Source: a virus
Length of the DNA: 64,000 bases
Direction: 5' to 3' (one strand)
Virus record (IMG/VR): IMGVR_UViG_3300025030_001854
Coordinates: 1 to 64,000 of that record
Positions within the stretch are counted from its first letter, which is position 1, and each line of letters opens with the position of its first letter. Both the position numbers and the translations under genes were made by a program. Positions 40,692-58,936 of this stretch are shown piece by piece. The notes below the pieces were generated by a model that did not search any database, was not told the origin of the DNA, and saw nothing but the letters and a program-made list of their open reading frames with translations.

Positions 40692-42176
40692 CTAACTGCT
40701 TTTCTTGGATTCGTGACAAGAACAGTCGCAACTCTTCTTAGAACACCAATTAAATTTCTTTTTTAGCCAAACTAAAAGTCCAGCACAAAAAATTGGAATT
40801 CCTATACAAAAAATTCCACCATCAATACAAGATATCATTATTTTTCCCCTTTAGAACATTTACCACATAAAAATTGTGAGCCATTCCACCATAATAACAA
40901 CAAAGGATAAATATCGTGACAACATTCGCATTCTTGCAAAAGGTCATAATTCCCTATATTGTCGTATCCATCCCACATATTATAGTTTATTAAATTAATT
41001 CCCTAAGATAACGTTTAATTTCAATACGAGCGGGTTTATTAGCTTTGGCATATTGCTTTTTAGAAGCTCTAATAGCAGTATGAAGCTTGTCTTCTGGAAG
41101 TTCTGAAGATTCTCGTAATGCTTTTCTAATGAGTTTTGCTGTTTTTGCGTTCATAAAAGTTTAACTATTTTTTATATATTTTTCTAATTCTTTATCGGGT
41201 AAATTTTTTCTCATTTCGACACATTGAGGATTTGAAGAAGAACATCTACCGCCAAATTTTAAGCATTCATAAAAATAAGAGCCTTTTAAATTCATTAATT
41301 CTTGTCTAGTAGATTTTGGGGCCAATTCTGGATATTTTTTAAACGATACAAATTTACCAAGCTCTAAATTTCCAACTTTTTTACATTCTACAAATTGAAT
41401 ACTATAACGTCTCATATTAAATTCCAGTAAAAGTGTCTTTTTTCTTTTTTTTAAACCACTCTTCTACTTCTAACCACAAAGCCACTACAATTAGTAGAAC
41501 TAATATAAAAAAATCTTTTATGGTTCTCATTGGAGCCCTAAGATGGTATCGCGCCATCGTCTCTTGAATACCAATCAAGAATAATGCTTTTATACTATTA
41601 GGGCATAAACAAAATATTTGAGCCCCGTCCCAGAATTGCACTGAGATTTCTTCCTTACGAGGGAAGCACATCTCTATTTATGTTTACGGGGCTTAGACCC
41701 ATTATAAAATGGGCGGGTTCTGGCCAAATTTAAGCGGTTACTAATTGAGAATTCTTATATTCTTCTCCGCACTTATCACAAACAACAACTGGTTGAAATC
41801 CAATTTCTTCTCGGCCCGTGCCACTCAATAGGGCCGAAACCTTACGAATTGTCAATACTTGTTTAAAGTATCCATGTCCACACTTACACATAACTTGTGT
41901 CGTTTGAGACATAGGAATACTGCGAGGACTTAGGTCTGATGCGTTCATATTTTTAATTTAAAAAGAAAATTCCGACTAAACAAAATAAAACACCAATACC
42001 TAAATAAGCAAATAGCTTACATAGCATTTTAAAGTTTTTGGCATTTGCTTGTTCTTCAACGTATAAATTATCCCAAGAGGTTTCTTCCTGTTTAAGGACA
42101 GGAGATTTAAGGTCAATTTCTTGATTTTCCATATAGGTTATATTAAATTAGAGTTGCTGGTTTGTCAAACAAAAAT

Positions 42177-42253
42177 TGGTGTTCGCGGTTGGATTTGCAC
42201 CAACCTAATCTATCTACGATTACTTTTTTAGGAAAAAAGGTCGATACGCGAAC
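42177..42253 (-). tRNA. Atypical D-armless tRNA-Arg(CCT)
   Basis: GTTCGCG/CGCGAAC-ACCA, loop TT CCT AA, T arm GTTGG TGCAAAT CCAAC. Confidence 0.6.
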
Positions 42254-42865
42254 AAAAAATTATAAATTAACATCCATAATTGCTATCTTCTGGAGGAATA
42301 ATTAATGGTTCCAGTTTAAGGGTTTTCTTAAGAAGGTTCTTCTTAATAAGGACGCTTAAAGCTTTTGCTCTTAGATTAAATTCTCTTTGAGATTCTTTTC
42401 TTTTCTGACCTGCAAATTTTTTTGTTTTTCTTTCTTTTTTATTAAATTGACCTTGATGACCAATTCTCCATTTATCTCCAAGAGATTCTAATGGTTCACG
42501 ACAAATAGGACATAACCCATAACCCTTACGGCTATATTTATGCTTTTCGCAAACGTAATTTAAGTTTCTATTTCCAAACATACAATTTCATTTAATTAAT
42601 TTATATTTACTCTTAAGAAAATCAATACGAGTGGAATATTTAGAACTCTCAATAATTGGATTTCCTTCTATCTTCAGAAAGATATAACGGACTTCTGTTC
42701 TATCTTTATTTATAGCAACAATTTTAATGAAGGTATCTCCCCAATCTTTGTCTACTAATTCGTCACCAACAGAAATATTGGGACAACAGGATTTAGAAAT
42801 AATACTCTTTCCGTTAACAACAAAATTCCAAAATCTAGTAAAAATATTATTCATAATATATAAAT

Positions 42866-42943
42866 TGGTAGGATAGGAGGGATTCGAACCCTCATTAGTC
42901 CATTATGCACACATTGTTTAGAAGACAAGGCCATTACTATCCC
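42866..42943 (-). tRNA. Atypical D-armless tRNA-Arg(TCT)
   Basis: GGGATAG/CTATCCT-ACCA, TTGT CTTCTAA ACAA, GGTTCGAATCC T arm. Confidence 0.7.
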
Positions 42944-43543
42944 ATTAAATTATTTAATTACTTTAAACTTTTATCGTCCTTTTCTGGGAGGATAAAAAAA
43001 TATAGAGCTTTTACAAACCTCACAGGTTTCTCTTGCGAAATCTCCATCTCTCTGGCATGACTCTATTTTCAGTTCCCGTTGAAAAGCTTCAAAACGAGAG
43101 AAACAATTAGGACAAGTACTAATCCAAATTTCTTCTGAAGGAGGATTGCCTCTAAAAACACATTTCATATTAAATTTTTTTCTCTATTTTCACCACCAAA
43201 AATTCTATATCTTTAGCAAAATGAAGAGTCTCCTGTTTATTTCTTCTCGCATCACGAATAGCTAATTTTTTATTTTTCCAGTTACTTGATTGAATATGCC
43301 AAGTAATAGGAAAATCTTCTCTGTTTCTCCAAAAAATTGTATAATTGATGGTAGATTTCATTTTAAATAATTCAGTTTTTTTTAATTTGATTTCGAGTTT
43401 TTAACACCCAGGCTGTCTCGACGATAGTATAACCATCTTGGTCACATACGCTATCCCATTCTCCAATAGATATAAGATAATCTTTCGCCTGTTGATAAGT
43501 TAGACCTTTTTCTTTTTCGAAGTCACTAATTTTCATTCAGAAA

Positions 43544-43619
43544 TGGAGTCCGCTATAGGAATCGCACCTATCAACCCTCGTTTTGCAGACGCGGTGTTTC
43601 ACTAGCCACACCAGCGGAC
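43544..43619 (-). tRNA. tRNA-Cys(GCA)
   Basis: Loop CTGCAAA, U73-CCA. Confidence 0.8.
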
Positions 43620-44080
43620 ATTTTTATTCTTCATTAAAAGTCTTATCTTGGCATTCCTGGCAAAGGCCCGAAATCCTCGCCTCCTTACGGCTTAGAGTAT
43701 CTCGAAAAGGCCCATAAGGCTTTCGGCAGATTGGACAGACTTCTTTCCCGATGCTTTCCTGCCTATTTACACCAAAAATTTGGGTCAAAAGTTTATCAAT
43801 TGCTGGATTTTTCTCTGTCGGTTTCATAATATTCTTTAAATTAATTAGTTATTTTATCCGCCAAAGTTCTAAGAGCACCAGAAAGAGCAATTAAATCTTG
43901 CTTACGAACAGTATTAAGACAGAACGTAGATGCTACTGTTGAATCAGTTCGTTGCGTGACATCAAAAACCAAACTATGATAACAAAAATTTTTCATCTTG
44001 TTCTTCTTAAGAGTAAGAAAGACTACTGAATTATAGCTATTAATTACTACAGATACAGATTGTCGTTTCATAATCTTACT

Positions 44081-44386
44081 TTACTCCTGTTTTGGCTGCT
44101 CGTCAAGCCATTTTGCAATCACATCACAATGACACGACACTTCTTTATCGGCACGTTTACAATAACAGCCTAATTTTTCATCTTTTAAAGTTAAAACTAA
44201 ATCATAAAACCTTTTATCTTTAAGACAAAAATTAAACCATTTAGCAAATTTATTAATAACTTCTTCTCTTGTCCCATCTCTACCGATTTCAAAAGGATTA
44301 CCAAATATAGAACCCCTTCCACAGTACTCATAAGGAGTTTCTGAATAAGCTCTTATATTAATTACTTTTGTCATATATATTTGCAA
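44081..44386 (-). CDS. DUF4326 family protein
   Basis: YCGRGSIFGNPF, LGCYC, CHCDVI. Confidence 0.8.
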   Translation of the reverse strand: MQIYMTKVINIRAYSETPYEYCGRGSIFGNPFEIGRDGTREEVINKFAKWFNFCLKDKRFYDLVLTLKDEKLGCYCKRADKEVSCHCDVIAKWLDEQPKQE

Positions 44387-44464
44387 ACGGGGAGATTTGC
44401 ACTCCCACGCTTTTTAAAGCCTAAGATTCTCGGTCTTAGATGTCTGCTCTTTCATCACGTTTGC
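44382..44464 (-). tRNA. tRNA-Leu(GAG)
   Basis: TAAGA CCGAGAA TCTTA with long variable arm. Confidence 0.75.
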
Positions 44465-44923
44465 TCTATTTCTTACTCCATAATTAGAGGTTTGAGCATG
44501 ACAATTACAGCATAAAAGTTGAATATTGAATAATCTATTATCCTTATTATCTCCATTGATATGATGTAATTCCAAAGGAATATATAATGTATTCCATTTA
44601 ACCCGACCACATTTTTCGCATTGATGTTTTTTTAAACCCTCTTGAATCAATCTTTTTTTTAAACAATGACTACTAATTTTTATGCAATCTTTTACAAGAA
44701 AATATTCAATGGGTTTTCTGGTTGGAGCCCTTTTACCTCTCCAGATAGCTTGACCCAAAAAATGAGGTGCTTTTATTAAAAACTCTTCGGCCCTTTCTTT
44801 TATTCTTAAATAATTATGACTGTCTGGATACAATCCCAATTTAATACATACACTTCTCCAAGATTCTGAATTTTGAATCACAATATTTAATGTTTGAAAA
44901 TCAATTTGTTTTATCTTACCCAT
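44414..44923 (-). mobile_element. HNH endonuclease overlapping tRNA-Leu(GAG)
   Basis: CEKC, LELHHING..DNR..N...LCCNCHAQT. Confidence 0.85.
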
Positions 44924-44980
44924 ACTGTCTAATAGTTACACGAAACAGTATGAATTGGGAATTTTCCCTATCTAAAAATT

Positions 44981-45071
44981 TGCGGGGTCTGAGATTTGAA
45001 CCTCAGTCCAGAGTGACAAGCTCTCTTGTATACCCTACTCGCCTTTCGGTTCTTCAGGGCCGCTCCCCCGC
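44981..45071 (-). tRNA. Atypical tRNA-Thr(TGT)-like RNA with enlarged D region
   Basis: GCGGGG/CCCCGC-A, T arm CTGAG GTTCAAAT CTCAG, loop CT TGT CA. Confidence 0.45.
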
Positions 45072-45072
45072 G

Positions 45073-45474
45073 TCAGTAACCTCGGTAACAAACCGTTAAG
45101 TGTAACGGCCATTTTAAATCAGGTTTTAATCCTAATTCAGTTCTTATATGTTGAATAAAAGGACATTCCACTAATAACCAAAAATACTCTCCTAAAAAGA
45201 AATATTCATGGTCAGTCTTAATATCAGAGAAATATTTAAATTCAATTACTTTTCCTTCATATTTACCCCATAAAGGATGTTGATTAATTCCCCTTTCGTG
45301 TTTTCCAGGAAGAATCGTAACGTGGCTTCCGTGGTAAGAGGTAGAAGTTTTCTTGCCGATAAATCTTTCTACCCAAAATCTATAGTAATTAGCAATAGAA
45401 TGAGGACATTCTAAAATTATCCAATCATTCTTATATCTAATAACGCCTTTGGCGAAATAAAATTTTTCTTTCAT
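45073..45474 (-). CDS. 2H phosphoesterase-like protein
   Basis: Two HxT motifs, SHVTI and PLHLTV. Confidence 0.6.
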   Translation of the reverse strand: MKEKFYFAKGVIRYKNDWIILECPHSIANYYRFWVERFIGKKTSTSYHGSHVTILPGKHERGINQHPLWGKYEGKVIEFKYFSDIKTDHEYFFLGEYFWLLVECPFIQHIRTELGLKPDLKWPLHLTVCYRGY

Positions 45475-45723
45475 AATTCAATCCTTTCTGTTTTTTTCAC
45501 CAGATAAGTGAACGGTTCTACACTAAAACGTATTTGTTTTGTCGTCAAGGACTTTCCAAAACTAACGGCCCTATCACTTCACGACAATCATTAGATAATC
45601 TTAATTCTTTTATTCTTTTTAAACACTCTTTTTTAAAAGAAAATCTTTCAAACCGAACATCCCAATGTCCTTCCATTTGATTATACTCAAAATATTCTTC
45701 GTAAATAATAAAATACATAAATT

Positions 45724-45798
45724 TGGTAGTCCCGAACGGTCTTGCGCCGATACTTGCGAATTTTTGAAATTCGTGCCTCTGCTTTGGGCTACGGGACC
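45724..45798 (-). tRNA. tRNA-Leu(CAA), short variable arm
   Basis: CGAAT TTCAAAA ATTCG. Confidence 0.75.
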
Positions 45799-46451
45799 AT
45801 TTAATCTAAATTTTCTGGTTTAACTGGCCAACCAATACTTAAAAAGGATTCTAATTGCTCTCCCGCATTATATTTCCACTTAGGAGGTTCATCACAAATA
45901 GCGGAACAAAAATCCATTAATTGATACGCTGGAAGAGAAACTATTTGATGGATATCACTACCTAAAACTTTAGCCCCAATCTTATAAGCTATTTTTTCGG
46001 CGTCTTCTAAAGATTGAGCGGGCAAATGGAAAGCATATTTCCGATTTTCAATATCATATTCAAGTAAATACAATTTCACCATATTAATTTTTTAATTCAA
46101 ATTCAAGTTTAGTTAAAGTTTTCAAATTTAAATCTTTTTTCTTACATTCTTCACATCCATTTTTAACAAAGATTTCTGTTTTGTCTTTTGATGGACAACG
46201 GCATTGTTCTAACACTTTACCGCAACTACATTTTTTTATATAATGCATAGAGATTATTTTCCAATTGGCATAAACTCAATCACAAAATCTGTATAATCAT
46301 CAGGCAATAGCAAAATATTTCCATTGGATGTTACAATTGATTTACCAGAACGAGGATTTGCCCATGTTCCACCACCCTCACGAACAAAACAGTAAGTGTT
46401 ATCTACTTTAACTACAGAACCAATAGGTAAAGCTAAAATATTTTTCATAAA

Positions 46452-46528
46452 TGGTGAGATTAGAGGGCATTGCACCCTCGTTTACTGCTTGAGAAACAGT
46501 AGTCCTATTCTTCTTAGACGATAATCTC
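46452..46528 (-). tRNA. tRNA-Glu(CTC)
   Basis: ACTGT TTCTCAA GCAGT. Confidence 0.8.
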
Positions 46529-46908
46529 ATTTTAAGAACTACATACTAAACTACTAATTTTAGCTATAACAGCGGCATCAATATAGTCTGTATACTTTGA
46601 TGTTATAGTTGTATAAAAACAATCGCTATTATCTATTTTTAGTATTCCGGTGCTGTCAATTGGCGGTAATGGGCTTCCGACAATAGTATTTTGGGTTAAA
46701 GTATTTAAACGATTTAACTCTACTTTTTCAGCTTCTCCACTACTTACCCATAGACTAAAAAGCGAAAAACACTCAGGACAAACATTCAAAACTTCTTCTT
46801 TGGGTTTTTTAAGTTGAATAGCTTCGTTTTCGTTTTCTATTCTTGATTGGCAAAAAAAGCATTCCATAGTTAAAGATTAACCTGGAGTTGTTTGATTGTC
46901 AAGAAAAT

Positions 46909-46979
46909 TGGTGGCAGGCTGGGGATTCGCACCCCACCGAATTCCTTATGAGAGAACTCTGGCCGCTAGACCGCTTGCC
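46909..46979 (-). tRNA. tRNA-Met or Ile2(CAT), short D arm
   Basis: GTTCT CTCATAA GGAAT. Confidence 0.7.
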
Positions 46980-47098
46980 AAAAATAAGTGTAATATATTG
47001 TGAATTGAGATTTGAAATAGCTATAATTTTTAGCCTCCTTATGTGCCCCTTGGAAGGGAGCTTCTGGTTTCCAGTCTCAATTCACCATAAGGACGGCT

Positions 47099-47626
47099 AT
47101 GATTAATAATATGAAAAAATGTTCTAAATGTCAGCAATTAAAAAATAAATCTTTTTTTTGTAAAAATAAACGAGCAAAAGATGGACTTTTTTCCCACTGT
47201 AGAGACTGCCGAATAATTTATTATAAATCAATAACTACTATTAAAAAAGAAAAAATTAAAATTCGTCATAATATTCGAATGAACGAACGATTTGATAATC
47301 CAATAGAAGTAAGAAAAATTCGTTTAAAAACCTTATTAATTATATCAAGATATAGAGCTAAAAAAAGAAATTTACCATTCGATTTAGATAAAGACTGGCT
47401 AGATAAAAATACCCCCGATACTTGTCCAGCTTTAGGTATTCCTCTTATTTTTAATCCTAGATATGGAAACCATTCTTTTAATTGCCCATCAATAGATAGA
47501 ATAGATAACTCAAAAGGATATACTAAAGATAATTGTGTTGTTGTATCAAAAAAAGCTAATACTATTAAAAATATGTCTACTATATCCGAATTAAAAATGG
47601 TCGCTGATTTTTATTCCAAATTTTGA
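47099..47626 (+). mobile_element. HNH-like endonuclease
   Basis: KKCSKC, CRDC, CPALG, PSIDRIDNSKGYTKDNCVVVS..AN. Confidence 0.75.
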
Positions 47627-48308
47627 AGATTATTTATATCTTTTTCTTAAAAAGTTTAATAGACAACGTTCATCGCAAAAATTATATTGCTTGGTTTCCC
47701 CAGTGTCAATACCTGTTTCTAATGTAGCATCAATAGCTGGATTGGGTTTTTCTCCCTGTTCTTTTGTTTTCTTGGGTTTTGACGAATCAATAGACATTTT
47801 ACATTCGTCGCATTGAATTACCTTTTTCGCTATAACAGAAGGAATATCTAATAACCAAATTCCCTGCTTTTTAAATGTTTCGTCTATTAATGGCATATAT
47901 TGTCTATTACACAAAAAAACGTGTAATTTATATTAACCTTAAAATTTTATGCCAGAAATTACTTTTACAATCACCCAAAATCGTTTTGATAAGATTCAAA
48001 ATGCAATGACATCTTACGCCGAATATAATCCTTTAGACCCAGCGGTAGACGAAAATGACTTTGCCAAAAAGGCTTTTTTGGCTATGCTGCAAGTTTATTT
48101 AAATAGGCATCGCCAAACCCGTATTGAAACGGTTAAAACTCAACTTTCTGAATGCTCAGATGCTACCTGGACTCAAATCACTGGTATTTTAGGATAATAC
48201 CATACTATAACTAACGGGGGGAACATTTAATTTAATGTCCTTTTGCTGGGAAGACGCACATCCAGATAATAAAACAATTACAACTAATAGTATTAATAAT
48301 TTCATATT

Positions 48309-48845
48309 TTAAAATTTAATAAAATAACAAGACTCTATCTCTTCTTTGGTGAGAATTACTATCTTACAAGTTTGGGGCTCGTAAAAGCCTATTTTTACTT
48401 TTTCTTGTTCTCTATATAAAAAAATATTTATAGCATGTCCCTGCAATTCTTTAGTCTCATAAAGAAACTCCCCAAAAGATAAAGCCGTATTTTTTAATTT
48501 ATTAGGAGTATTATGGTGAAGATATTGGGCAAAAAAAGCAGAAAATCTTGCGAAATCATCACAATCATTTTCTTCAGCAGTCCAATTAGAACTTGCTAAT
48601 TGTTGTTTAAAACTAAAAAATGAGTCAGAAAAAGCTCCAGCCACCCAATTTTTACTTGGAACAGCGTAATTTCTGTCAGAATACATTGATAGAGAAGGAA
48701 TAATACCATTAGTGGCAAGATGAATTCTAATTTCTTGTCCAGTCATCTTAAACGTCGAAACTGGATGATTATCTTGTTTTGAACAACCAAATAGTAATAA
48801 AACACTTAAAATTATAACCGCTAATATACTCTTACCGATATTCAT
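48309..48845 (-). CDS. Lipoprotein with papain/transglutaminase-like domain
   Basis: Lipobox LLFG-C; NDCDDFA, GHAIN, YEPQ suggest a Cys-His-Glu triad. Confidence 0.6.
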   Translation of the reverse strand: MNIGKSILAVIILSVLLLFGCSKQDNHPVSTFKMTGQEIRIHLATNGIIPSLSMYSDRNYAVPSKNWVAGAFSDSFFSFKQQLASSNWTAEENDCDDFARFSAFFAQYLHHNTPNKLKNTALSFGEFLYETKELQGHAINIFLYREQEKVKIGFYEPQTCKIVILTKEEIESCYFIKF

Positions 48846-49105
48846 GACTATATTTACACAAAAAAGCCAGCTAAAAAGCTGGCTCGTGTTTAATATTCAA
48901 ACTTAATTTTCAGGTTTTATCCCCCAGTTCGTTTTGAGAAGTTCATTTTCAATTACTTGGAAATCCAATGTCTCTCCACCAACTAGCATTGGATGAATGT
49001 AAATGTTTGGATGACCATTTTCATCTATATGAGAAACCCTAATGGAATGGTCTATTACATTATTTTTGTAATTTATTTTTAAATAATCTTCGAGGTTCAT
49101 AAAAA

Positions 49106-50110
49106 TTATTTTAATACAATAAGTAAAGTTCCTGGCACAAGATTTCTGTTCACAGAAGTACTTTGTATAAAGATATTATACTTATCATGACTTGCTGGCG
49201 AGACTTTAACCTCGTAGTCTGGTAAACCAAGAAGTTGCCGAGCGTTAGCTCCAGAATAGACTTTACCAGTTGTCTTTTCCTGAACTAGAATTTGTTTATA
49301 ATTTTGAACGCTTTCAGGTTTAGTAAGCTGAAAATAAGCAGAACCCTTTCGATAGGGTCGAGAAGTCCAACTTTCTACAAACGGCTGAATAACCGCTTTC
49401 CTCTGAACAGGGAAAACCTCAAAATCATTTATAGGTAATTCATCGAGAGTCACTTTTACAGCTTTCGTATTTAAAGTATTAGTATTTAATTGGAAAAGAC
49501 TCTTTGTGGAACGAATACCTTGGGAACGACCCAACATATAATTATCAGTTGCAGTCCTAATAACTTCTCCTACTTTAGTAACTCCATCAGAAGTAGTAGA
49601 CCAAATTTGAGTGTTCTCCAATGGGAATCCATAAGAAGTAGCATATCTTCGTCCCGAAGGGTCAGGAACTAAACACGCGAAAGTCCAATTATCCTTAGAC
49701 GTTTCAATCATTAATTTAAGCTTTTCGGGAGAATTTTTGCTACTATTTTCTTGACCATCAGTTAAAACATAAACTAAAAATGCATGGTCGGCATAGATTT
49801 CAGGAGTAAGACTTAAATCATCTGAAGCTTTAATTGTGGCATCAATAAGCGCCGTATTACCTGTTGCCAAATAATGCTTGGCGATACTTGGTAATCTCAT
49901 AACATCCATGTCATAAAGAAGGCAAGTGATGTCCTGATTAAACAAATAAACAGAAACTCTCGTTTCCTGATTCATCTCTTTGGAACGAGTCGCAAGGTGA
50001 GAAATTTGTTCATCGAATACCTTAACTACTTCACGAGAAAGTCCTCTCATAGAACCACTCTTATCAATGACAAATACAATATGATTAATATAATTTTGAA
50101 TTAAACTCAT
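49106..50110 (-). CDS. vWA domain protein
   Basis: MIDAS DKSGSM, TALIDA, LTDGQEN. Confidence 0.85.
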   Translation of the reverse strand: MSLIQNYINHIVFVIDKSGSMRGLSREVVKVFDEQISHLATRSKEMNQETRVSVYLFNQDITCLLYDMDVMRLPSIAKHYLATGNTALIDATIKASDDLSLTPEIYADHAFLVYVLTDGQENSSKNSPEKLKLMIETSKDNWTFACLVPDPSGRRYATSYGFPLENTQIWSTTSDGVTKVGEVIRTATDNYMLGRSQGIRSTKSLFQLNTNTLNTKAVKVTLDELPINDFEVFPVQRKAVIQPFVESWTSRPYRKGSAYFQLTKPESVQNYKQILVQEKTTGKVYSGANARQLLGLPDYEVKVSPASHDKYNIFIQSTSVNRNLVPGTLLIVLK

Positions 50111-50163
50111 GACTTATGATATGTAAAATTTTCCAAAAAATCAAGTAAAATTTTCCAAAAAAT

Positions 50164-50238
50164 TGGTGGGTTGACGGGGAATCGCACCCCGTTCCGAGAC
50201 TTTAAGAGAGTCCGCTTCACTATCAAAGTTTTCAACCC
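50164..50238 (-). tRNA. tRNA-Lys(CTT)
   Basis: GGACT CTCTTAA AGTCT. Confidence 0.8.
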
Positions 50239-50310
50239 ATAATTACTAAAAAGGTGGCCGGGCTAGCTCGTCATTATTACAGACGCCGACCATAAATTAA
50301 TTTTAATAAA

Positions 50311-50496
50311 TTGCGGGTGAGATTTTACTCACAACAGTTTTCAGGGCTGGTTAGGCTATATACTGCACCCAAACAGTTACGTCACACAATTCATAAAACC
50401 ATTCCTCATAACCAATTAAGGAACACGTTTGTATGCACCATGGCTCTCTTTCAGACCATGCCATAACTATCTGTCCATCTAATTCTGGCACCGCAA
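50311..50496 (-). ncRNA. About 185-nt tRNA-like structured RNA, possibly manA-class
   Basis: TTGCGG/CCGCAA ends, terminal GTGAG TAAAAT CTCAC arm, CATGGTC/GCCATG and TTCCT/AGGAA hairpins. Confidence 0.55.
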
Positions 50497-50801
50497 AATT
50501 ATTTAATCCAATAATTAAAAATCTTTATCTACGACAGCAATCTTTAGTTTATTGCCAGTAGCCATTTTCACTAAATCATTAACGGTCTTTAATAAATTAT
50601 TTAAATCTTTATCGTCTTTAATTAGCTGGGTCACCCAACCCTCTCCGGTTGGTAACTCGCACCATACAAAACAAGCCCCTTTTTGTTCTCCAGCAAACTT
50701 TAAGATTCCACTTTTCTCTATTAATTCAATCATTTCTGATTGGACATCTGGAAGTTTATCTGTGTTAACTAATTTTTTGTCGATGGTTGTGATTTTCATA
50801 A

Positions 50802-50987
50802 TTAAATATGAATACTATTTAAATAAGACCAAAGCCCACTTACCTTAATTAGCCACAGAACTAGCAAAACAACAGTCGCTATATTAAGGATTTTCTTAAT
50901 CTTTCCGTCCATTGGAACATACAAATTAATTGCATACAGGGCCATTCCAATCAAAACTATAACCAACATAACTATAAATAATGACAT
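50802..50987 (-). CDS. Small two-TM membrane protein (Thivi_2564-like)
   Basis: IN.YVPMDGKIKKILNI..VV..VLWL motif between two TM helices. Confidence 0.6.
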   Translation of the reverse strand: MSLFIVMLVIVLIGMALYAINLYVPMDGKIKKILNIATVVLLVLWLIKVSGLWSYLNSIHI

Positions 50988-50991
50988 AAAT

Positions 50992-51065
50992 TGGTGGGAC
51001 TCCACGGTATCTCGCCGTGTTCTCAAGGTTAAAAGCCTTTTGCATCAATTTAATGCTTGAATCCC
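50992..51065 (-). tRNA. tRNA-Lys(TTT) copy 1
   Basis: AAGG CTTTTAA CCTT. Confidence 0.75.
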
Positions 51066-51112
51066 ATTTTGTTTTAATCTCTCTTGTGTAGATTAAAAGT
51101 GTAAACACATAT

Positions 51113-51580
51113 ATGAAAGAACAAATTCTTAAACTCAGAGCTGAAGGTAAATCTTACGACCAAATTGTTTCGTTACTTGGATGTTCTTCTGCTACTGTTT
51201 GGTATCATTGTAACCCAACCGCAAAAAAAGAACGAGCCCGCCTCAATAGATTAAAAGATAAACTTTGGCATAAAAAAATTAAAATTATTTTTGGTGGTAA
51301 ATGTCAATCTTGCGGTTATCATCGCTGTCTTTCCGCTTTAGATTTCCATCACTATAATAACGATAAAACATATTCGGTCATGAATATTATTCGTATTTCA
51401 AAAGGTAAAGCAATACAAGAAGCAATGAAATGTATTCTTCTTTGTTCTAATTGTCATCGAGAAGTTCATAATAAAATGTTAGATATTAGTCATTTAGTCC
51501 CAAACATTCCTACTCAAGGACTTGGGAAAAGCGGACGACCATCAAAACTTATAGTAATGGCTAAAACCTTCAACCCATAA
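51113..51580 (+). mobile_element. HTH-HNH endonuclease
   Basis: N-terminal HTH; CQSCG, LDFHH, LCSNCHREVH. Confidence 0.8.
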
Positions 51581-51815
51581 CTAATTTTTTTTCTTAGGAC
51601 CGCCATGCCTATAACAAGCTAATCCTGAGCAATATCCTGGCCACCATTTTCCATTAATAAATTCAACATAACGCATTTGGTCCTTTTCTTGAGGTCCATA
51701 AGCTTCTTCGTCGCAAAATCCATCGGGAAGACCGCCACTCCACATTGGGACAGAACAACGTCCTTTTCCTTCTGAATCTAATTCTTGATGATGTTTTGAA
51801 AGAGATGCCATAATT

Positions 51816-51889
51816 TGGTGGGCCTCCACGGTATCTCGCCGTGTTCAATTGGTTAAAAGCCAATTGCATCAATTTAATGCTTGAAGCCC
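51816..51889 (-). tRNA. tRNA-Lys(TTT) copy 2
   Basis: TTGG CTTTTAA CCAA; D and T arms match copy 1. Confidence 0.75.
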
Positions 51890-52155
51890 ATATATAACAG
51901 TATTTTCTTAAATTTTAAATTAAGAATTGTTCTAAATTGGAGCCGCAGTAGGATAACGCTTCCTATCATTAAATTTACAAAATTCAATACCCTCTTAGGG
52001 ACAGCGGCATTAAAAGGGTCATGAAACATGACCCAGTATTCTCTACGTCCAAGTCTTATCACGCATTTGTCCACGTTTCGAACCGTATCGTAACAGAGGA
52101 GAACATCGACTTGGTTATACTATCTCAAAAATTTGTGGACTTGTCAAACAAAAAA

Positions 52156-52232
52156 TGGTGCGCCGTGAGAATTCTGCCATCTCGTTATTTTTGCTTGGAA
52201 GGCAAATGCCATAGCTTCTAGGCGAACGACGC
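52156..52232 (-). tRNA. tRNA-Gly(TCC)
   Basis: TTTGC CTTCCAA GCAAA. Confidence 0.8.
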
Positions 52233-52251
52233 ATTAATTAATTTAAATTAG

Positions 52252-52323
52252 CTCCCTCTGATGGTAACGCTCCACCCTTTTCTGATTCAGAGTCAGTTGT
52301 AATAACTAATATACTAAGAGGGA
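52252..52323 (-). tRNA. tRNA-Gln(CTG)
   Basis: CTGA CTCTGAA TCAG, U1-A72, G73. Confidence 0.75.
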
Positions 52324-52971
52324 ATGAATCTGTTTTTTTATAATTGGGCTATGCCATCAAAAGTAATCCAAGGAACATAAGAATTTCCGGTTTCTGTATT
52401 ATTAACAGGCAAGTTCGCATATGTAGATTTACTTCCAAATTTTTGGAATCCTCCGCGATAAGCTGCCCCGCTATTTCCACTATTTGTTAATCTATATAAT
52501 CCGACTTCTACCACGAGAAGGTCGTAATTATCAAATTCAAAATAAGCACAATTACCAGAAAATGTTCTATTTTGTAATATTCCATAAGAAGTATTTTCAT
52601 ATTCTGAACCTACTGCTCCAGAAAACACAGTTTGTTTTAAACTTCCAGAAGGAGAATGAATAGAAATAGTAAGCGAAGTTTTATAATCACCAGCCGTCGA
52701 ATCTTCTCGGCCTTGAATTTGACCTCGAAATAATCCATTAATTGCTGCTGTTCCCATATTTAGCTGGGCAACATACTGTCTATTTAAAAAATTGAAAACT
52801 CCGGTATTAGGGAAATTTTTGTAAATTTCTTTAACAGAAGGAACTCCAGTTTCCGTCTTTGAACTACTTAAAACTTTTCTATCTCCAGATGTGGTAGCTG
52901 TCCAATAAGTAGAAAATGATGGCGAGGCAACAATGCCTGTTGATTGAGAAAAATAAAATGTATTACTCATA

Positions 52972-53172
52972 TTAAGTATTACACTTATTCTTTCTCCATT
53001 TTCTCCATTCTACCAATAATAAAACAATAATTAAAGGAATTAAAATAAATACCCCACCAACTTCGGGAATAATTGGATAATGGGGATTATGAATATTGGA
53101 ATGACCATGAGGGTTTCCGTAATGATTTCCATTATTATAAATTGTTCCATAGGTGAGGCTGTTTGTTTCCAT
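52972..53172 (-). CDS. Small protein with PEP-CTERM-like sorting signal
   Basis: PIIPEVGG followed by TM helix and basic WRKWRK. Confidence 0.5.
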   Translation of the reverse strand: METNSLTYGTIYNNGNHYGNPHGHSNIHNPHYPIIPEVGGVFILIPLIIVLLLVEWRKWRKNKCNT

Positions 53173-53198
53173 AACATCAGGTGTTTTGAGATATAAAA

Positions 53199-53272
53199 TG
53201 GTAGGCCGTACTTGTTACGCTCAAGTGAAAAAATCTCATCAGGATTCTATTTTACTATTAAATTAACGGCCC
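53199..53272 (-). tRNA. tRNA-Ile(GAT)
   Basis: GAATC CTGATGA GATTT. Confidence 0.75.
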
Positions 53273-53331
53273 ATTAAAAGTCAGCTATGAGAACGCGATT
53301 CTCTTATAGTGGTAGTTGACGAGTCCACAAA

Positions 53332-53423
53332 TGGTAGCTCCATGCCGAATCTCACGGCCCAGCACCCCAGTCCGGGGATTATATTCGTTATAAGCGAACC
53401 CATGCAATTTACATCTTGGAGCC
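53332..53423 (-). tRNA. tRNA-Ile(TAT) with long variable arm
   Basis: GTTCG CTTATAA CGAAT, variable hairpin CCCC/GGGG. Confidence 0.7.
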
Positions 53424-53436
53424 ATTACTAATTAAA

Positions 53437-53512
53437 TGGTCCCATTCCATCGTACTGCCCGATGACTTTCTGTGCTTCAAACAGACGTGCAGACTATCTA
53501 CACCAGAATGGG
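53437..53512 (-). tRNA. tRNA-Phe(GAA)
   Basis: TCTGT TTGAAGC ACAGA. Confidence 0.75.
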
Positions 53513-53514
53513 AT

Positions 53515-54099
53515 TTAAAAATGTTTTTGACTATGACAATTGGGACACAAATACATTAAATTGTTAATTAAATTATTTTTTTTATTTTCGTCTATGTGAT
53601 GAATTTGTAATTGAATTGGATTATTTTTCCAAGAATCAATACTACATTCAAAACATTTATAAGGAACATTATGAATATTCATATGCTTTTTAAGAGATTT
53701 TCTTGTTAATCTTTCCTGTCTAAGTATTGTTTTTTGATTTGTTAGTTGTGCGGTTTTTAAACCTCCGCGTTTTCTCCCATTATCACGACCAATAGAAACA
53801 TCAACATTTAACTTTAATAATCTTTTTTTATAATGATACCATGCTCCACCACTCATTCCGACGCCTAAATATAATAAAAATTGATTAATTGAATCACTCT
53901 CCCTCCAAACCTCTAACAACTTTTCATCCGAAAATTTAAAACGATTCTTTAAATATATATTTGGTTTCGTTTTTAAATTTAATTTTTTTAACCGATAACG
54001 TATTCCAGTTTCACTTAATCCCACATTGGAACTTAATTCTTTAATTGTTAAACCCTGGTCAATTAAATCTTCCAAAAACTTTCTTTCTAATATTTTCAT
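53515..54099 (-). mobile_element. HTH-HNH endonuclease
   Basis: CFEC, LQIHHID, N...NLMYLCPNCHSQ. Confidence 0.85.
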
Positions 54100-54166
54100 A
54101 TCTCATATTACACCGAAACAGTGAATGTGAGAACAATAAATATCTCGCTATACTCAAAAAACTAAA

Positions 54167-54240
54167 TGGTCGGTCATGTCGTAATCCCAACGACCCCTTA
54201 TGCTCCCAAAGCACATGTGCTTGTTCAACACTTATGACCG
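54167..54240 (-). tRNA. tRNA-Pro(TGG)
   Basis: C1-G72, TGTGC TTTGGGA GCATA. Confidence 0.75.
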
Positions 54241-54243
54241 ATA

Positions 54244-54317
54244 TGGTGAGGCGTAACGGTAACTCTCCGCTTTAGCTAGTTTGTAATACTAGTGCATTAA
54301 TTTTATGCTAACACCCC
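54244..54317 (-). tRNA. tRNA-Val(TAC)
   Basis: CTAGT ATTACAA ACTAG. Confidence 0.75.
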
Positions 54318-54320
54318 AAT

Positions 54321-54449
54321 TTTTCAGAGAACAGACAACAACAGCTTTTTTAACGTGCTACTATTACACCAACGACTTTCGTCGCCTTGGATTTGCACCA
54401 AAACCTTTCGTTTGATAGACGATGAAACTGTTATTTACACTACTGAAAA
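54321..54449 (-). ncRNA. YrlA-like Y RNA (permuted tRNA-like domain)
   Basis: CAGTAGTG...TGTTCTCTG end stem; T arm TTGG TGCAAAT CCAA, closed acceptor CGAC GAAA GTCG, then D arm GGTGTAATAGTAGCAC. Confidence 0.75.
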
Positions 54450-54523
54450 TGGTGAACGTTGAGAGAATCGCACTCCCGTCTCGGATATGTCGCACCCGCG
54501 CTTTTCTTTTAAACTAAACGTCC
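54450..54523 (-). tRNA. tRNA-Val(GAC)
   Basis: CGGGT GCGACAT ATCCG. Confidence 0.75.
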
Positions 54524-54826
54524 AATTCTAAATTTTGTAAATAAGAATATTCGCAATGAGCTAATAAGGCTTCAAATAATTCTTCGTCTGTTACGTCTGA
54601 CAAATTTGTTTCTTCTTTATTCATAATTAAGCAAACCTTCCATTCTTACAAATATACTCATACATACTACAATCCGCCCCGCAACCTAACTCGAAACAAA
54701 ACCTAAACCCGACATGTAATACTTTATGCTTTGTTTTCATCCATGTCAAGCCGTTATTTTTCCATGGCTTTCCTATAAATTCAAGATTTTTATATTTATT
54801 TTTAATATCTTGAGAAACGTAAATAT

Positions 54827-55069
54827 TCATTGGTCAACTTTTCTGTAATTCTTTTGCCATAAACCTCTTGTAATAAGATTCGCGGCCTTAATAACTTCTT
54901 TTTCAGACATTTCATGAAATGCCTCATGAATAAGCTCATGGACTAAAGTATTTAAATAAGCTTTGGGTTTTTGTCTTGGGTCAATTTCTATTAAATTATC
55001 GCCCTGATAACACATTCCCCAGGCTTTGTTTCGGCCTAATTTTTTATCTATGATTTTAAGTTTGGCCAT
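54827..55069 (-). CDS. Small HEXXH zincin-like protein
   Basis: TLVHELIH motif. Confidence 0.55.
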   Translation of the reverse strand: MAKLKIIDKKLGRNKAWGMCYQGDNLIEIDPRQKPKAYLNTLVHELIHEAFHEMSEKEVIKAANLITRGLWQKNYRKVDQ

Positions 55070-55203
55070 GACTTAAATTACACTAATAACTAGAGACGAT
55101 TCCCGATTCTCCACGTCTCACTTTCCTTCGGAAATATTTTATTTTCCCGCCTACTCGGAACATACTAATTTATTTATCGTATCTTTTATATGATAGTTAA
55201 AAA

Positions 55204-55278
55204 TGGTGACGGTGACAGGAATTGCACCCGCACTTGTTGGTGTCTAAAACCAATGCCTCTGCGTTGGGCTACACCGCC
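55204..55278 (-). tRNA. tRNA-Leu(TAG), short variable arm
   Basis: TTGGT TTTAGAC ACCAA. Confidence 0.75.
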
Positions 55279-55285
55279 AATAAAA

Positions 55286-55368
55286 TTACAGAGAACATAC
55301 AAATAAAGGTTTGCTTGTTGGCAGGCTTGGAGCCTAGTAGAAGTATCTTTATTTTATCGCTACTGTAA
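55286..55368 (-). ncRNA. Y RNA-like
   Basis: ACAGTAGCG...TACTTC...TGTTCTCTGT shared end-stem motif. Confidence 0.65.
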
Positions 55369-55369
55369 A

Positions 55370-55452
55370 TGGTAGCCAAGACGGGACTTGCACCCGTAAA
55401 ATTACGAAATTTTAAGTTTCGTTGCTGTGCTGTTCGCATTAATCACTTGGCC
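55370..55452 (-). tRNA. tRNA-Leu(TAA), enlarged D loop
   Basis: CGAAA CTTAAAA TTTCG. Confidence 0.7.
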
Positions 55453-55933
55453 GTTTTTTATTTTTACTTTTATATGTAGATGTCTGCGCGTGACAATTTG
55501 GACATAAAATTTGTAGATTCTCTAAACGATTATCTGTTTTTATTCCATTAATATGATGCAATTCTAAGGGAATTTTCTGATTTTGCCACTCTCTTATTTG
55601 ACATATTTCACATTCATACTTTTTTAATTTTCTATCAAAAAGTCTATTTTTTAAATTATGAGAGGTTGTTTTAGATGGACAATTATCGGTTAACCAATAT
55701 TCAATTGGTTTCCAATTAGATGTTTGTTTCCCTCTTAATAATTTATTGTAAGACCGACCAACCCAATGAGAAACATCAAAATTATATTTTTGAACAATTT
55801 TAACAATTATTTTAAATTGACTAGAAGATTTCCCTGTCTGACCTAGTGATAACAATACCATTTTTATTGTAATATTATTTTTATCATTTATAGCTTTTAC
55901 AGCTTCTTCGTCAGTAAATTTTCTAGCACTCAT
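55439..55933 (-). mobile_element. HNH endonuclease overlapping tRNA-Leu(TAA)
   Basis: CEIC, LELHHING..DNRLENLQILCPNCHAQT. Confidence 0.85.
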
Positions 55934-55974
55934 ATATGTATAGATATACACACGTCTATGCTTATAGAGAAATA

Positions 55975-56081
55975 TTAATAGAACAAGCAATAAGAACGGC
56001 ACAATGCCAGTTTTCCCAATTACTAATTTGGCGGGAAAATTCGATTATGAGTCGAAGTATTTCTTATTTATCACTAATTAA
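55975..56081 (-). ncRNA. Y RNA-like
   Basis: TAGTGATA...TACTTC GACTCATAATC...TTTTCCC/GGGAAAA...TGTTCT. Confidence 0.6.
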
Positions 56082-56083
56082 AT

Positions 56084-56158
56084 CGGGCGAACAACGAGGT
56101 TTGCACTCGCATAATCTTGATTCACAATCAAGGACATTAACGTTATGCTATATTCGCC
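56084..56158 (-). tRNA. tRNA-His(GTG)
   Basis: G-1:C73, CTTGA TTGTGAA TCAAG. Confidence 0.8.
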
Positions 56159-56164
56159 ATAAAA

Positions 56165-56293
56165 TGGTAGCCTGCCAGGAATCGAACCTAGTTTTAAATT
56201 ACTTTATCAACGTAGGCTTACTATAGATATCTTACATCTCAATTTCATTATTGTTGGTTATCTGACTTCCACAGAATACCCTCGTATCAGGCC
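56165..56293 (-). ncRNA. 129-nt tRNA-like RNA
   Basis: GGCCTG/CAGGCT-ACCA, T arm CTAGG TTCGATT CCTGG, no recognisable anticodon arm. Confidence 0.6.
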
Positions 56294-56463
56294 ATAAAAT
56301 TAAAAAGCGGGCTTGCTCTCCAGCTTGCCCGCTGGGGGTGTAGGCTAATGGTTTAGCTTATTCCCTCCACCACTTATACAATTTCACAACATTTCGACCA
56401 CCGTCCGAAAATTCTCCCCTTCAATGAAGTCGGCTAGTAGTTGTGCTGGGTTTGCAGGTATAA

Positions 56464-56539
56464 TGGCCCTCTATGCGAGACTCGCACTCGCTACATATCT
56501 TAGACAGAGATATATGATAAACTCATTCAACAATAGAGG
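56464..56539 (-). tRNA. tRNA-Asp(GTC)
   Basis: TATCT CTGTCTA AGATA, G73. Confidence 0.75.
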
Positions 56540-56615
56540 ATGTGCCTTGTTTTATTTTTATGAGAGCAATGGACATTCTTTATTACCCATCCTGACAAGG
56601 CGGAACTCTCGGGTA

Positions 56616-56692
56616 TGGCGAACATAGAGGGACTCGCACCCACAATCTTTGCCTTCGCAGGGCAATGCTTTATCTAATTTAGCTATATGTTC
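56616..56692 (-). tRNA. tRNA-Arg(GCG)
   Basis: TTGCC CTGCGAA GGCAA. Confidence 0.8.
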
Positions 56693-56697
56693 AAATT

Positions 56698-56886
56698 TTT
56701 ACGGAACAATTAGACTCAGTTTTGTCTGTGCTTTTCATCCAGACTTGCCATTATTTTGTTTCTTAAACAATTTTTAAGAACGTCCATTTTTGCGTTTTTG
56801 GCGCTATGTTTATACGTCCAATATGACTTGAAAGCCATATTATTTTTTTCATTGATAAAGATGAAACTGATTCTATCACCAGTAAA
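56698..56886 (-). ncRNA. Long Y RNA-like
   Basis: TACTGGTGATAG...TTTCATC...TGTTCCGTA end stem enclosing about 130 nt. Confidence 0.55.
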
Positions 56887-56887
56887 A

Positions 56888-56971
56888 TGGTAGACACGGA
56901 AAGATTTGCACTTTCATTTTCAATTTCTAATTACCATTACTAATTTCGAAGATTAGCTGGATTACGTGTCC
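56888..56971 (-). tRNA. Atypical D-armless tRNA-Arg(TCG)
   Basis: GGACACG/CGTGTCT-ACCA, CTAAT CTTCGAA ATTAG. Confidence 0.65.
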
Positions 56972-57696
56972 AATTTCTTTTTTTGTTTATTAACATGGGA
57001 AAATGGAGAAATATTTTTCCAATCTAAATTGTAATATTTGGCCCATTTTCTTATTGTATTGTCGGAACCCACTCCAATTAATTTTTTAATTTGTAAAATA
57101 TTTTTTGTTTTTAAAAGACTCTCCAATTCTTCTTTAGATGGACGGATAAATTTTCTATTACTAATCTTAGGAGAATGTCGCCAATTAGGATTTAATTGAG
57201 ATGGTTTTATTTTATATTTTTTATGTCTCTTTCCAGCAAATGAAGGTGTTTGGCTGTGACAGTTTGGGCAAAGAAAAGCTAAATTTTCCAAACGATTATC
57301 ATTAGATACTCCGTTCTTATGTTCTAATTGAAGACTTAATTTATTTCCTTGCCACTCTCCAAAATTTCCGCATTTTTCACATTTATAATCTAGTAATTGA
57401 AATTTAATAAGATTAGTTTTAATGTGTCGTCTATTTTGTATAGAATTTTCTTCTAATTTCCGTAAAAAATCATCTTTAGTATTTTTTCTTGTCAAGTTAG
57501 AAGAATTTACTCTCGATAAAAAATGTTTTGTATCTAATCCTAAAAATTCAATTCTCTTCCAACAGGTTTGATAATTAGACCCTTTATTTTCCATTCCAAA
57601 AAATCTTAAAACTTGAGACATACTAATGCTATTTTTAATAAGCTCAATAAAAGCATTATCTTCCATTTGCCAAACCACGCTTGTTCTTTTTCTCAT
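56962..57696 (-). mobile_element. HNH endonuclease overlapping tRNA-Arg(TCG)
   Basis: CEKC, LQLEHKNG..DNRLENLAFLCPNCHSQT. Confidence 0.85.
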
Positions 57697-57747
57697 ATCA
57701 TATATTACACAAAATAACGTAAGAAGTCTAATAATAGTGCAAAATAC

Positions 57748-57821
57748 TGGCTCCCCTCCCACCACTTGCAGATGGACTTACGCTTTCAAAGAGCGGTTTG
57801 CTACTCTTACAACAGAGGGGA
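57748..57821 (-). tRNA. tRNA-Gln(TTG)
   Basis: CGCT CTTTGAA AGCG. Confidence 0.7.
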
Positions 57822-57903
57822 ATTTCGCCAGAGCTTCGGATTAAACCGCATTTTTAATTGAGCCTCACTGTTCTGGCTAAGTGAGAATATACTTAATGAT
57901 AGT

Positions 57904-57979
57904 TGGTGGACACAGATGGGAATCGCACCCACTAAATCTTCATTGCGAATGAAGTGCATCGCTATTTTGCTTCTGGCCC
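57904..57979 (-). tRNA. tRNA-Ala(CGC)
   Basis: CTTCA TTCGCAA TGAAG, G3:U70. Confidence 0.75.
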
Positions 57980-57991
57980 ATTCTGTCTTTT

Positions 57992-58262
57992 GTTTAATAG
58001 GTATTAGGATTTCCAGCGTCACCTAAGTTTTTAACAACCTTTTCGCGGGGTATGCAACCAAGCCCGATTTGAGCCTCGTCTCAGCTAAGGATTTGCACCT
58101 TTTTATTATACCCATTTACCTTTATGGATGATACGCTCACGTAACTATGTTAGTAATGATGTCTAACTTCATCCGATACCACGATTTAGACCTATGGCAA
58201 ACCTCTTTAATAATTAATTAAATCAATGCCGACATCTAAACAGCAGTTCACACCTATTAAAC
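57992..58262 (-). ncRNA. Orphan structured RNA, about 270 nt
   Basis: 11-bp closing helix GTTTAATAGGT/ACCTATTAAAC, internal AAGG TGCAAAT CCTT T-loop hairpin. Confidence 0.55.
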
Positions 58263-58314
58263 GGATTCACCCCCAAAGGGTTTGGTTTTGCTTAATCACT
58301 AATAATACTAAGAC

Positions 58315-58394
58315 TGGTGGACCACGGCGGTAACACTCCGCTTTTTTTAACTTGCTTGCAAAGCAAGTTCAACATTTTTGTTGCCACGTAGCCC
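58315..58394 (-). tRNA. tRNA-Ala(TGC), atypical
   Basis: CTTGC TTTGCAA GCAAG, G3:U70. Confidence 0.65.
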
Positions 58395-58454
58395 AAGGAG
58401 GCGCGTATCGTTAACGCCGACGCCTGATTGAATACAGGAGGTCTTGTGAACCCA

Positions 58455-58932: not shown

Positions 58933-58936
58933 AATA

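Follow-up and report, generated by a model that had tools for sequence, protein, structure and literature searches.

Three unusual arginine transfer RNA (tRNA-Arg) genes were studied in a phage known from IMG/VR record IMGVR_UViG_3300025030_001854, which comprises 136,838 base pairs (bp) and is estimated to be 71% complete; its first 64 kb, i.e. the whole stretch of DNA described here, is called the window. In each of these genes only a short linker joins the acceptor stem to the anticodon stem, and text resembling a D loop stands on the 3' side of the anticodon arm. Three bases of the linker (the L strand) are complementary, in Arg-UCU at two of the three positions, to three bases directly 5' of the D-loop-like text (the R strand), and genes of this build are called rewired below. 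The three genes and their parts are the following.

42177..42253, minus strand: rewired tRNA-Arg(CCU), 77 nucleotides (nt) including the encoded CCA; anticodon at 42230-42232.
42241..42243, minus strand: L strand CGA of the rewired D stem of Arg-CCU; its partner is the R strand TCG at 42217-42219 (3/3 pairs).
42209..42216, minus strand: D-loop-like segment TAGATAGA of Arg-CCU with the A18-G19-A20 analogues, 3' of the anticodon arm; it aligns with TAGACGGA of homologue L104.
42866..42943, minus strand: rewired tRNA-Arg(UCU), 78 nt including CCA; anticodon at 42920-42922.
42899..42905, minus strand: D-loop-like segment TAATGGA of Arg-UCU; L strand TGG at 42931-42933, R strand GCA at 42906-42908.
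56888..56971, minus strand: rewired tRNA-Arg(UCG), 84 nt including CCA; anticodon at 56947-56949.
56926..56933, minus strand: D-loop-like segment TAATTAGA of Arg-UCG; L strand CCA at 56958-56960, R strand TGG at 56934-56936 (3/3 pairs).

All three genes share an acceptor stem of 7 bp, an anticodon loop of 7 nt with the form YU-NNN-AA and a T arm whose stem has 5 bp and whose loop has 7 nt; position 73 is A, and CCA is encoded. The acceptor, anticodon and T stems are paired at 7/7, 5/5 and 5/5 positions in Arg-CCU and Arg-UCG, and at 7/7, 4/5 and 5/5 positions in Arg-UCU, where the anticodon stem holds one C.U mismatch. The gap from acceptor to anticodon stem measures 7-8 nt, the gap from anticodon arm to T arm 18-24 nt, and there is no D hairpin at positions 9-26. 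Arg-CCU is made up of the acceptor strands GTTCGCG/CGCGAAC, the linker TATCGAC (7 nt), the anticodon arm CTTTT-TTCCTAA-AAAAG, an 18-nt 'variable' region TAATCGTAGATAGATTAG and the T arm GTTGG-TGCAAAT-CCAAC, followed by ACCA. The corresponding parts of Arg-UCU are the linker TAATGGC (7 nt), the 19-nt region GTGTGCATAATGGACTAAT and the T loop TTCGAAT, and those of Arg-UCG the linker TAATCCAG (8 nt), the 24-nt region TAATGGTAATTAGAAATTGAAAAT and the T loop TGCAAAT, again with ACCA at the end. Such an anatomy of three Arg genes, with a 7-8-nt linker and an 18-24-nt variable region, had been described in an earlier sequence-only reading of this DNA, and a parse of the minus strand confirmed it at the same coordinates.

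With default settings ARAGORN found none of the three rewired genes. The Rfam tRNA model (RF00005) gave 33.0 bits to Arg-UCU and 32.5 bits to Arg-UCG, just over its gathering score of 29, and did not report Arg-CCU even at E up to 10; in its alignments of the two reported genes 4-5 nt stand in place of 15 D-arm positions, and 16-21 nt are inserted in the variable region. The complete record was also scanned, on its two strands, for the architecture itself; when every pair was required in the acceptor (7/7), anticodon (5/5) and T (5/5) stems, the two matches obtained were Arg-CCU and Arg-UCG. When 4/5 pairs were allowed in the anticodon stem, there were nine matches: the three candidates, two mis-parsed normal tRNAs and four without ACCA. 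Chance in an A+T-rich genome does not account for the architecture. A likeness of Arg-UCG to RAGATH-21 in Rfam (13.9 bits, gathering score 70.3) was not significant, and a full-text literature search on RAGATH-21 gave nothing.

Blastn of both regions against GenBank phages gave no match, the rewired genes of the window being too diverged from the Felix O1-type copy for this method. That copy is an unannotated Arg-UCU gene of the same build in phage Felix O1 (AF320576, 25951-26029), which has perfect stems and lies between annotated tRNA genes. Its homologues were found in 263 GenBank phage records, with Felixounavirus, 145-kb E. coli and Klebsiella phages, jumbo phages, and Serratia and Streptomyces phages among the carriers; in the 40 records listed the gene is labelled 'tRNA-OTHER' once and tRNA-Arg never. 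A pattern consisting only of the anticodon loop, a gap of 24-34 nt and the T loop matched at least 120 viral loci, and among the matches listed 90 of 120 had the rewired architecture; the same pattern, applied to one genome per prokaryotic species, gave the architecture in 13 of 120 loci, from which the rewired form can be regarded as mainly viral. Two other routes were abandoned: a neighbouring 104-residue open reading frame (ORF), used as a synteny anchor, yielded 263 pattern-matched stretches in viral contigs and no relative, and the exact Arg-UCG pattern (CTTCGAA...TAATGG...TGCAAAT) yielded three loci, all of them chance matches within coding sequence. Through the DNA polymerase six related contigs were reached at 61-63% identity; RF00005 matched four of them, and no rewired gene was present in the tRNA regions of these four, which were parsed.

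The pairing of L with R was followed in 64 distinct family members with a 7-8-nt linker beginning with UA, aligned by MAFFT blind to structure (alignment A2, 65 rows). The acceptor, anticodon and T helices had been selection criteria of the scan; L-R was a criterion in neither this sample nor the second one described below. In the 63 genes parsed, the strand L and the strand R, which directly precedes the conserved TAAyTGGA, form 3/3 pairs in 50, 2/3 in 11 and fewer in two, with such diverse combinations as CGG/CCG, CTC/GAG, CCC/GGG, CAC/GTG, CAA/TTG, CGC/GCG, CGA/TCG, CAG/CTG, CTT/AAG and CCA/TGG. Columns 12-14 and 43-45 of A2 are 92.6% paired, compared with 56.0% after shuffling (0/500 shuffles as high) and 21-39% when the partner was moved by one to three columns. 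The covariation score is 0.803 vs 0.160, with 63 cells changed on both sides and compensatory changes at all three pairs, and RNAalifold predicted L-R on A2 unaided. Over all four helices 97.1% of cells are paired in the 64 distinct sequences and 438 are changed on both sides. The second sample was collected by the D-loop text and a T loop pattern, blind to the anticodon, and comprised 114 genes, 82 of them new and distinct; in these 82 the L-R helix is paired in 228 of 246 cells (shuffle mean 146.7, maximum 164, 1000 shuffles). In the subgroup with 8-nt linkers, to which Arg-UCG belongs, linker bases 2-4 pair in addition with three tail bases in 107/111 cells (shuffle mean 84.2, maximum 92), the types being AAC/GTT, AGT/ACT, AGC/GCT, AAT/ATT and ACA/TGT; in Arg-UCG itself AAT of the linker faces ATT in the tail. 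The D-loop text of that subgroup would therefore bulge out from the 3' strand of a helix of 6 bp. No consistent pairing of linker bases 2-3 with the tail was present in genes with a 7-nt linker, Arg-CCU and Arg-UCU included. The sequence-only reading had noticed that the linker can pair with the relocated segment (CGA/TCG, CCA/TGG) and had suggested a covariation check on collected homologues; this check has now been run, and the pairing turned out to be a conserved covarying helix.

The D-loop-like text that was earlier seen 3' of the anticodon arm is likewise conserved. It reads TAATGGA in Arg-UCU, and in TAGATAGA of Arg-CCU and TAATTAGA of Arg-UCG the first G is replaced by A. The base resembling A20, which was also claimed to be kept, is indeed an A after GG or AG in 60 of 63 family genes, and the remaining three read AGGA. 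For the analogue of the 15-48 pair, in which the nucleotide just 5' of the T stem stands for base 48, the family shows A-T in 56 of 63 genes, G-C in three, G-G in two and another combination in two, which is the pattern of a Levitt pair.

The elbow of the molecule, where the D loop meets the T loop, has to be discussed together with the ordinary tRNA genes around the rewired ones, which form the following setting.

40607..60958, minus strand: tRNA island with some 36 further tRNA genes, each of them on this strand, among small ORFs and HNH endonuclease genes.
56616..56692, minus strand: canonical tRNA-Arg(GCG), the only canonical tRNA-Arg of the record, found by ARAGORN and given 64 bits by RF00005; it has a normal D arm with the D loop AAATTAGATAA.

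Of the 29 island tRNAs whose T loop is parsed with 7 nt, 28 carry G55, and AG replaces the usual GG in the D loops; the single TTC tRNA among those 29 has GG in its D loop, and three island tRNAs with xGA T loops have neither. In the phage and its relatives L014, L015 and L016 the T loops with G55 are TGC, CGC, AGC, GGC or xGA, and they go with AG in the D loop, or with AATT if position 56 is A. Within the pool of 98 tRNAs from these four sources, G55 is accompanied by AG and not GG in 71 cases, by GG in seven and by neither in nine, and T55 by AG in one, by GG in six and by neither in none. Such a clade-wide change of the universal contact between G18 and pseudouridine 55 is unusual in itself. 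The rewired genes of the window go the same way, TGC T loops being found with TAGA (Arg-CCU and Arg-UCG) and the TTC T loop with TGGA (Arg-UCU); among family members with TTC T loops there are 58 genes with TGGA and three with AGGA, which a first-match rule counts as AG. The rule proposed from the sequence at the outset, GG with TTC and AG with TGC, thus holds both in the window genes and in ordinary tRNAs. The relocated segment obeys the 18/55 rule of real D loops, as is expected if it makes the same contact, and by analogy with those tRNAs two of the rewired genes appear to be adapted to the unusual A18/G55 elbow of this phage.

The membership of the window genes in the family was assessed with a covariance model, R1, which was built from 59 family sequences with the window genes left out. 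It gave 71.3 bits to Arg-UCU (E 4.8e-18), 50.1 bits to Arg-CCU (E 7e-12) and, with the filters off, 44.7 bits to Arg-UCG, which is lost with default filters (E range for the three genes 4.8e-18 to 1.6e-12); the canonical Arg-GCG received 18.3 bits. Each gene has its own nearest group: Arg-UCU resembles the TAATGGC/GCA group (L021, L088, L138), the tail TAGATAGATTAG of Arg-CCU resembles TAGACGGAGTAG of L104, and Arg-UCG resembles the 8-nt-linker group with TTGAAAAT, e.g. L357, which has CCG/CGG instead of CCA/TGG. All of them possess the UA-initial linker of 7-8 nt, the L-R helix, the D-loop-like text 3' of R and an Arg anticodon. Judged by these features, the three genes belong to a large and conserved phage family that is specific for arginine and for the most part unannotated.

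The specificity for arginine, as suggested by the sequence-only reading, is borne out by the genes which were picked without regard to the anticodon. In the sample of 114 the anticodons are TCT in 75 genes, ACG in 24, CCT in six, TCG in five, CTA in two, and GAT and TAC in one each, and the two CTA calls re-parse as TCT with the stem shifted by one base; Arg anticodons are consequently present in at least 110 of 114. The loci L304 and L369, with the rewired architecture, the text GTAATTGGA and the anticodons GAT and TAC, may be anticodon-switched members or mis-parses. C35 is universal in the family, 55 of 64 genes have A or G at position 73, and U33 and A37 are kept in the anticodon loops; the window genes show the A20 analogue, C35, U or G at position 36, and A73. 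According to passages of a review by Giege and Eriani (PMC9976931), bacterial arginine identity depends mainly on A20, C35, position 36 and A/G73, and a D-loop base as a main identity determinant is there described as unique to arginine. This would be a simple reason why the D-loop text was kept and why the anticodon drifted among Arg anticodons only.

The use of codons by the phage fits together with this set of genes. In 94 long ORFs AGA accounts for 48.9% of Arg codons, CGA for 14.9%, AGG for 12.4% and CGG for 3.8%, and the three rewired genes together would serve 80%. There is no other tRNA in the record reading AGA, AGG, CGA or CGG, and each of the six Arg codons is covered by exactly one of the four genes, either the canonical Arg-GCG or a rewired one.

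It is therefore proposed, on the strength of sequence comparison, that the three are probably working Arg tRNA genes of a phage tRNA island, belonging to a widespread phage-borne family with a permuted cloverleaf wiring, and a function in translation is likewise likely. In the chain of such an RNA, U8-A9 would be followed by one or two bases and then by L, which would run nearly straight into the anticodon stem. The R strand would come 3-10 nt after the anticodon arm, followed at once by the D-loop-like T-A-R-y-y-G-G-A with the analogues of A14, R15, G18, G19 and A20, and a tail of 4-10 nt would lead from there to the T stem. Since R follows the anticodon arm, the L-R helix encloses this arm and could stack on it in the manner of a D stem. 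L would take the place of canonical positions 22-25 and R that of 10-13, R passing into the D-loop text as 13 passes into 14-21. Three connections would be changed: 9 would join '22', 43 would join '10', and 21 would join '48/49', with the tail meeting the T stem where 48 meets 49. From this model we infer that all helices and the D loop could hold their usual places in the L shape, and the pattern of the 15-48 analogue, together with the fit at the elbow, supports a core that would be normal. The GG (AG in this phage) would touch T-loop positions 55-56; A20, C35 and A73 would give bacterial arginyl-tRNA synthetase (ArgRS) its normal determinants, and the rewired RNAs would decode AGG, AGA and CGA/CGG.

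Several observations weigh against this proposal. The L-R pairing of Arg-UCU (TGG/GCA) amounts to 2/3 standard pairs, the weakest of the three genes, and by nearest-neighbour energies it costs energy (-12.9 kcal/mol for the L-R fold vs -14.7). In Arg-CCU a local hairpin TAATC/GATTA reaches -19.8 kcal/mol vs -16.4 for the L-R fold, and of the three window genes it is only in Arg-UCG that L-R lies within the minimum free energy fold. A search with one exact pattern for other rewired genes with a TGC T loop gave none in 33 loci, so the A18/G55 argument for the rewired form is drawn from two genes and the analogy with ordinary tRNAs. The argument on three-dimensional placement is built on the general geometry of tRNA. 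Two relatives of the phage with large tRNA islands carry canonical, D-armed Arg-UCU and Arg-GCG genes instead. As to transcription, 24 RNA runs match the Felix-type locus, as contigs only, and in the four inspected it can be said only that the stretch is present, be it as DNA or as RNA.

Among the other explanations, the one that survives best holds that these are tRNA look-alikes outside translation, i.e. decoys or sponges for a host nuclease or another enzyme acting on tRNA-Arg, or regulatory RNAs. The limitation of the family to arginine, and mainly to viruses as the locus counts given above indicate, is in its favour; nevertheless, the 7-nt anticodon loops are canonical with U33, A37 and C35, A20 and A/G73 are kept, and in the window genes CCA is encoded. 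Moreover, the four Arg genes are complementary over the six codons, with the rewired ones reading those most used, a complementarity that a decoy would not need, and this explanation is considered improbable.

Lower still is the probability that the genes encode D-arm-less tRNAs of the mitochondrial type, in which the linker would be a mere connector, the long region would make its own hairpin in the manner of a variable arm, and the molecule would be a flexible 'boomerang' with no D stem. The long region of Arg-CCU can in fact form the local hairpin mentioned, with 5 bp and a 7-nt loop, which is 3.4 kcal/mol more stable than L-R, and in Arg-UCU CAT/ATG around AATGGACTA can be read from the sequence. 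Such self-hairpins are, however, not conserved in the rows of homologues inspected, whereas the helix between linker and R covaries and, in the 8-nt-linker subgroup, the linker is paired to either side of the D-loop text. In addition, the conserved GG-A and the match between positions 18 and 55 imply an elbow contact, which is absent from D-arm-less mitochondrial tRNAs; this makes the explanation very improbable. Decaying pseudogenes or integration remnants of tRNA-Arg genes can hardly be believed in, for although standard finders miss the genes or score them low and the Felix-type copy is mostly unannotated in GenBank, the acceptor strands are complete, the four helices with their many double changes contradict the random decay that was named beforehand as a sign against the idea, and the family occurs in the many GenBank records mentioned and in viral contigs by the hundred, its 64 + 82 distinct sequences not being one recent clone. 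A remnant of a tRNA fragment or attachment site was rejected on account of the presence of both acceptor strands.

The permuted wiring can be compared with several known forms of tRNA. Canonical bacterial and phage tRNA-Arg (RF00005; e.g. Arg-GCG, or Arg-UCU of L014 and L015) shares with it the 7-bp acceptor stem, the 5-bp T stem, the anticodon arm and U8, as well as the G18 G19 A20 text of the D loop, C35, A/G73, CCA and presumably the job; the difference is that in the rewired genes the D-stem strands flank the anticodon arm and the D-loop text lies between anticodon and T arms. The Felix O1-type tRNA-Arg(UCU) has the same architecture and helix, but two of the window genes differ from it in the anticodon (CCU, UCG), and these two carry the G18-to-A and U55-to-G changes typical of the tRNAs of this phage. 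D-arm-less mitochondrial tRNAs also have a short connector at the site of the D arm and still function; they possess no D-loop text, no long post-anticodon region and no conserved contact of D and T loops, and their shape is flexible, whereas the rewired genes keep D stem and loop in a relocated form. Class II tRNAs have a normal D arm and a self-paired hairpin in the variable arm, whereas the rewired genes have no D hairpin and their homologues do not conserve any self-pairing within the long region. In the permuted tRNA genes of Cyanidioschyzon merolae the order of parts on the DNA is altered by circular permutation and processing restores a canonical tRNA. In contrast to these, the acceptor halves of the window genes follow each other in the usual way, and the mature RNA would retain the permutation. 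The allo-tRNAs and the (8/4) or (9/3) tRNAs of bacteria and phages are likewise non-canonical and come from metagenomes and phage tRNA clusters, some of them with Arg anticodons (Mukai et al., PMC5389517); they alter the split between acceptor and T stems, with 8 or 9 bp in the former and 4 or 3 bp in the latter, and keep a D hairpin with a long stem and a tetraloop, while the window genes show the 7/5 split and lack a D hairpin.

A published description of the rewired wiring was not found in full-text literature, a scope outside which most subscription journals and older phage tRNA papers lie. Nor is such an architecture described in passages of PMC7609411, which reviews non-canonical tRNAs, of PMC5389517 on novel cloverleafs, of PMC11555353 on defence and the tRNAs of phages, or of PMC9897764 on fragments of tRNA genes. 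For a tRNA with permuted connectivity, this negative result is not proof of novelty.

Apart from the main family, a second group of rewired Arg-UCU genes was encountered, with 20 distinct sequences. It has a 9-10-nt linker (GYCCCNNCA), a helix of 5-6 bp around the anticodon arm, the tail (A/T)GGANGGCA and the T loop TTCGATT, and its first T-stem pair is often mismatched, so that an 8/4 split of acceptor and T stems is possible. IMG/VR loci of this group are L029, L046, L050, L051, L053, L055, L057, L061, L071, L081, L083, L108, L118, L131, L132, L136, L140 and others.

The phage itself encodes a family-B DNA polymerase, a ribonucleotide reductase, a UvsX-like recombinase, an RNA ligase, a thymidylate synthase and HNH endonucleases, and its G+C content is 32-40%. 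The number of tRNA genes depends on the tool: ARAGORN with default settings counts 12, RF00005 counts 18 over the whole record, every one within the island, and the permissive mitochondrial mode of ARAGORN parses 36 on the minus strand, at least one of them doubtful. Two leucine tRNAs, tRNA-Leu(CAA) and tRNA-Leu(UAG), at 45724-45798 and 55204-55278, are 75 nt long and have a 5-nt variable loop with no long variable arm. At 46909-46979 on the minus strand there is an odd tRNA-like gene with the anticodon CAT, a D arm that is very short, its loop being parsed as 3 nt, and the T loop TGCGAAT; this gene was found by the permissive mode only and has a weak match to the Rfam Tymo_tRNA-like family (26.1 bits, gathering score 40). 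An HNH endonuclease ORF (56962-57765, minus strand; Pfam PF01844, E 6.6e-06) ends 10 nt inside the 5' end of Arg-UCG, and HNH genes are annotated across the Felix-type rewired Arg gene in two of the 40 GenBank records listed. HNH endonucleases may be homing at the rewired tRNA-Arg gene.

A bolder version of the proposal is rather unlikely to hold in all its parts, and it is offered tentatively. It states that the rewired tRNA would be a topological isomer of the cloverleaf with the same L shape, charging by the host ArgRS and normal decoding, that phages would keep it, for arginine alone, because the altered core escapes an activity directed at ordinary tRNA-Arg in infected cells, e.g. a host nuclease or a defence system, and that in this phage it would have acquired a private A18-G55 elbow. 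If the rewired RNAs are charged and used, the cloverleaf would not be the sole wiring for a working tRNA of the cytoplasmic type, and a D stem could form from strands flanking the anticodon arm. If this is true, models of how tRNAs fold and evolve would be newly constrained, and the design of orthogonal tRNAs would gain a natural scaffold. It would also explain the apparent lack of an AGA reader in many phage genomes, among them those of Felix O1, rV5-like, Klebsiella and jumbo phages, and would mean that annotation pipelines systematically lose a gene found in hundreds of sequenced phages. Copies occur in cultivable phages of E. coli and Salmonella, which makes the question directly testable.

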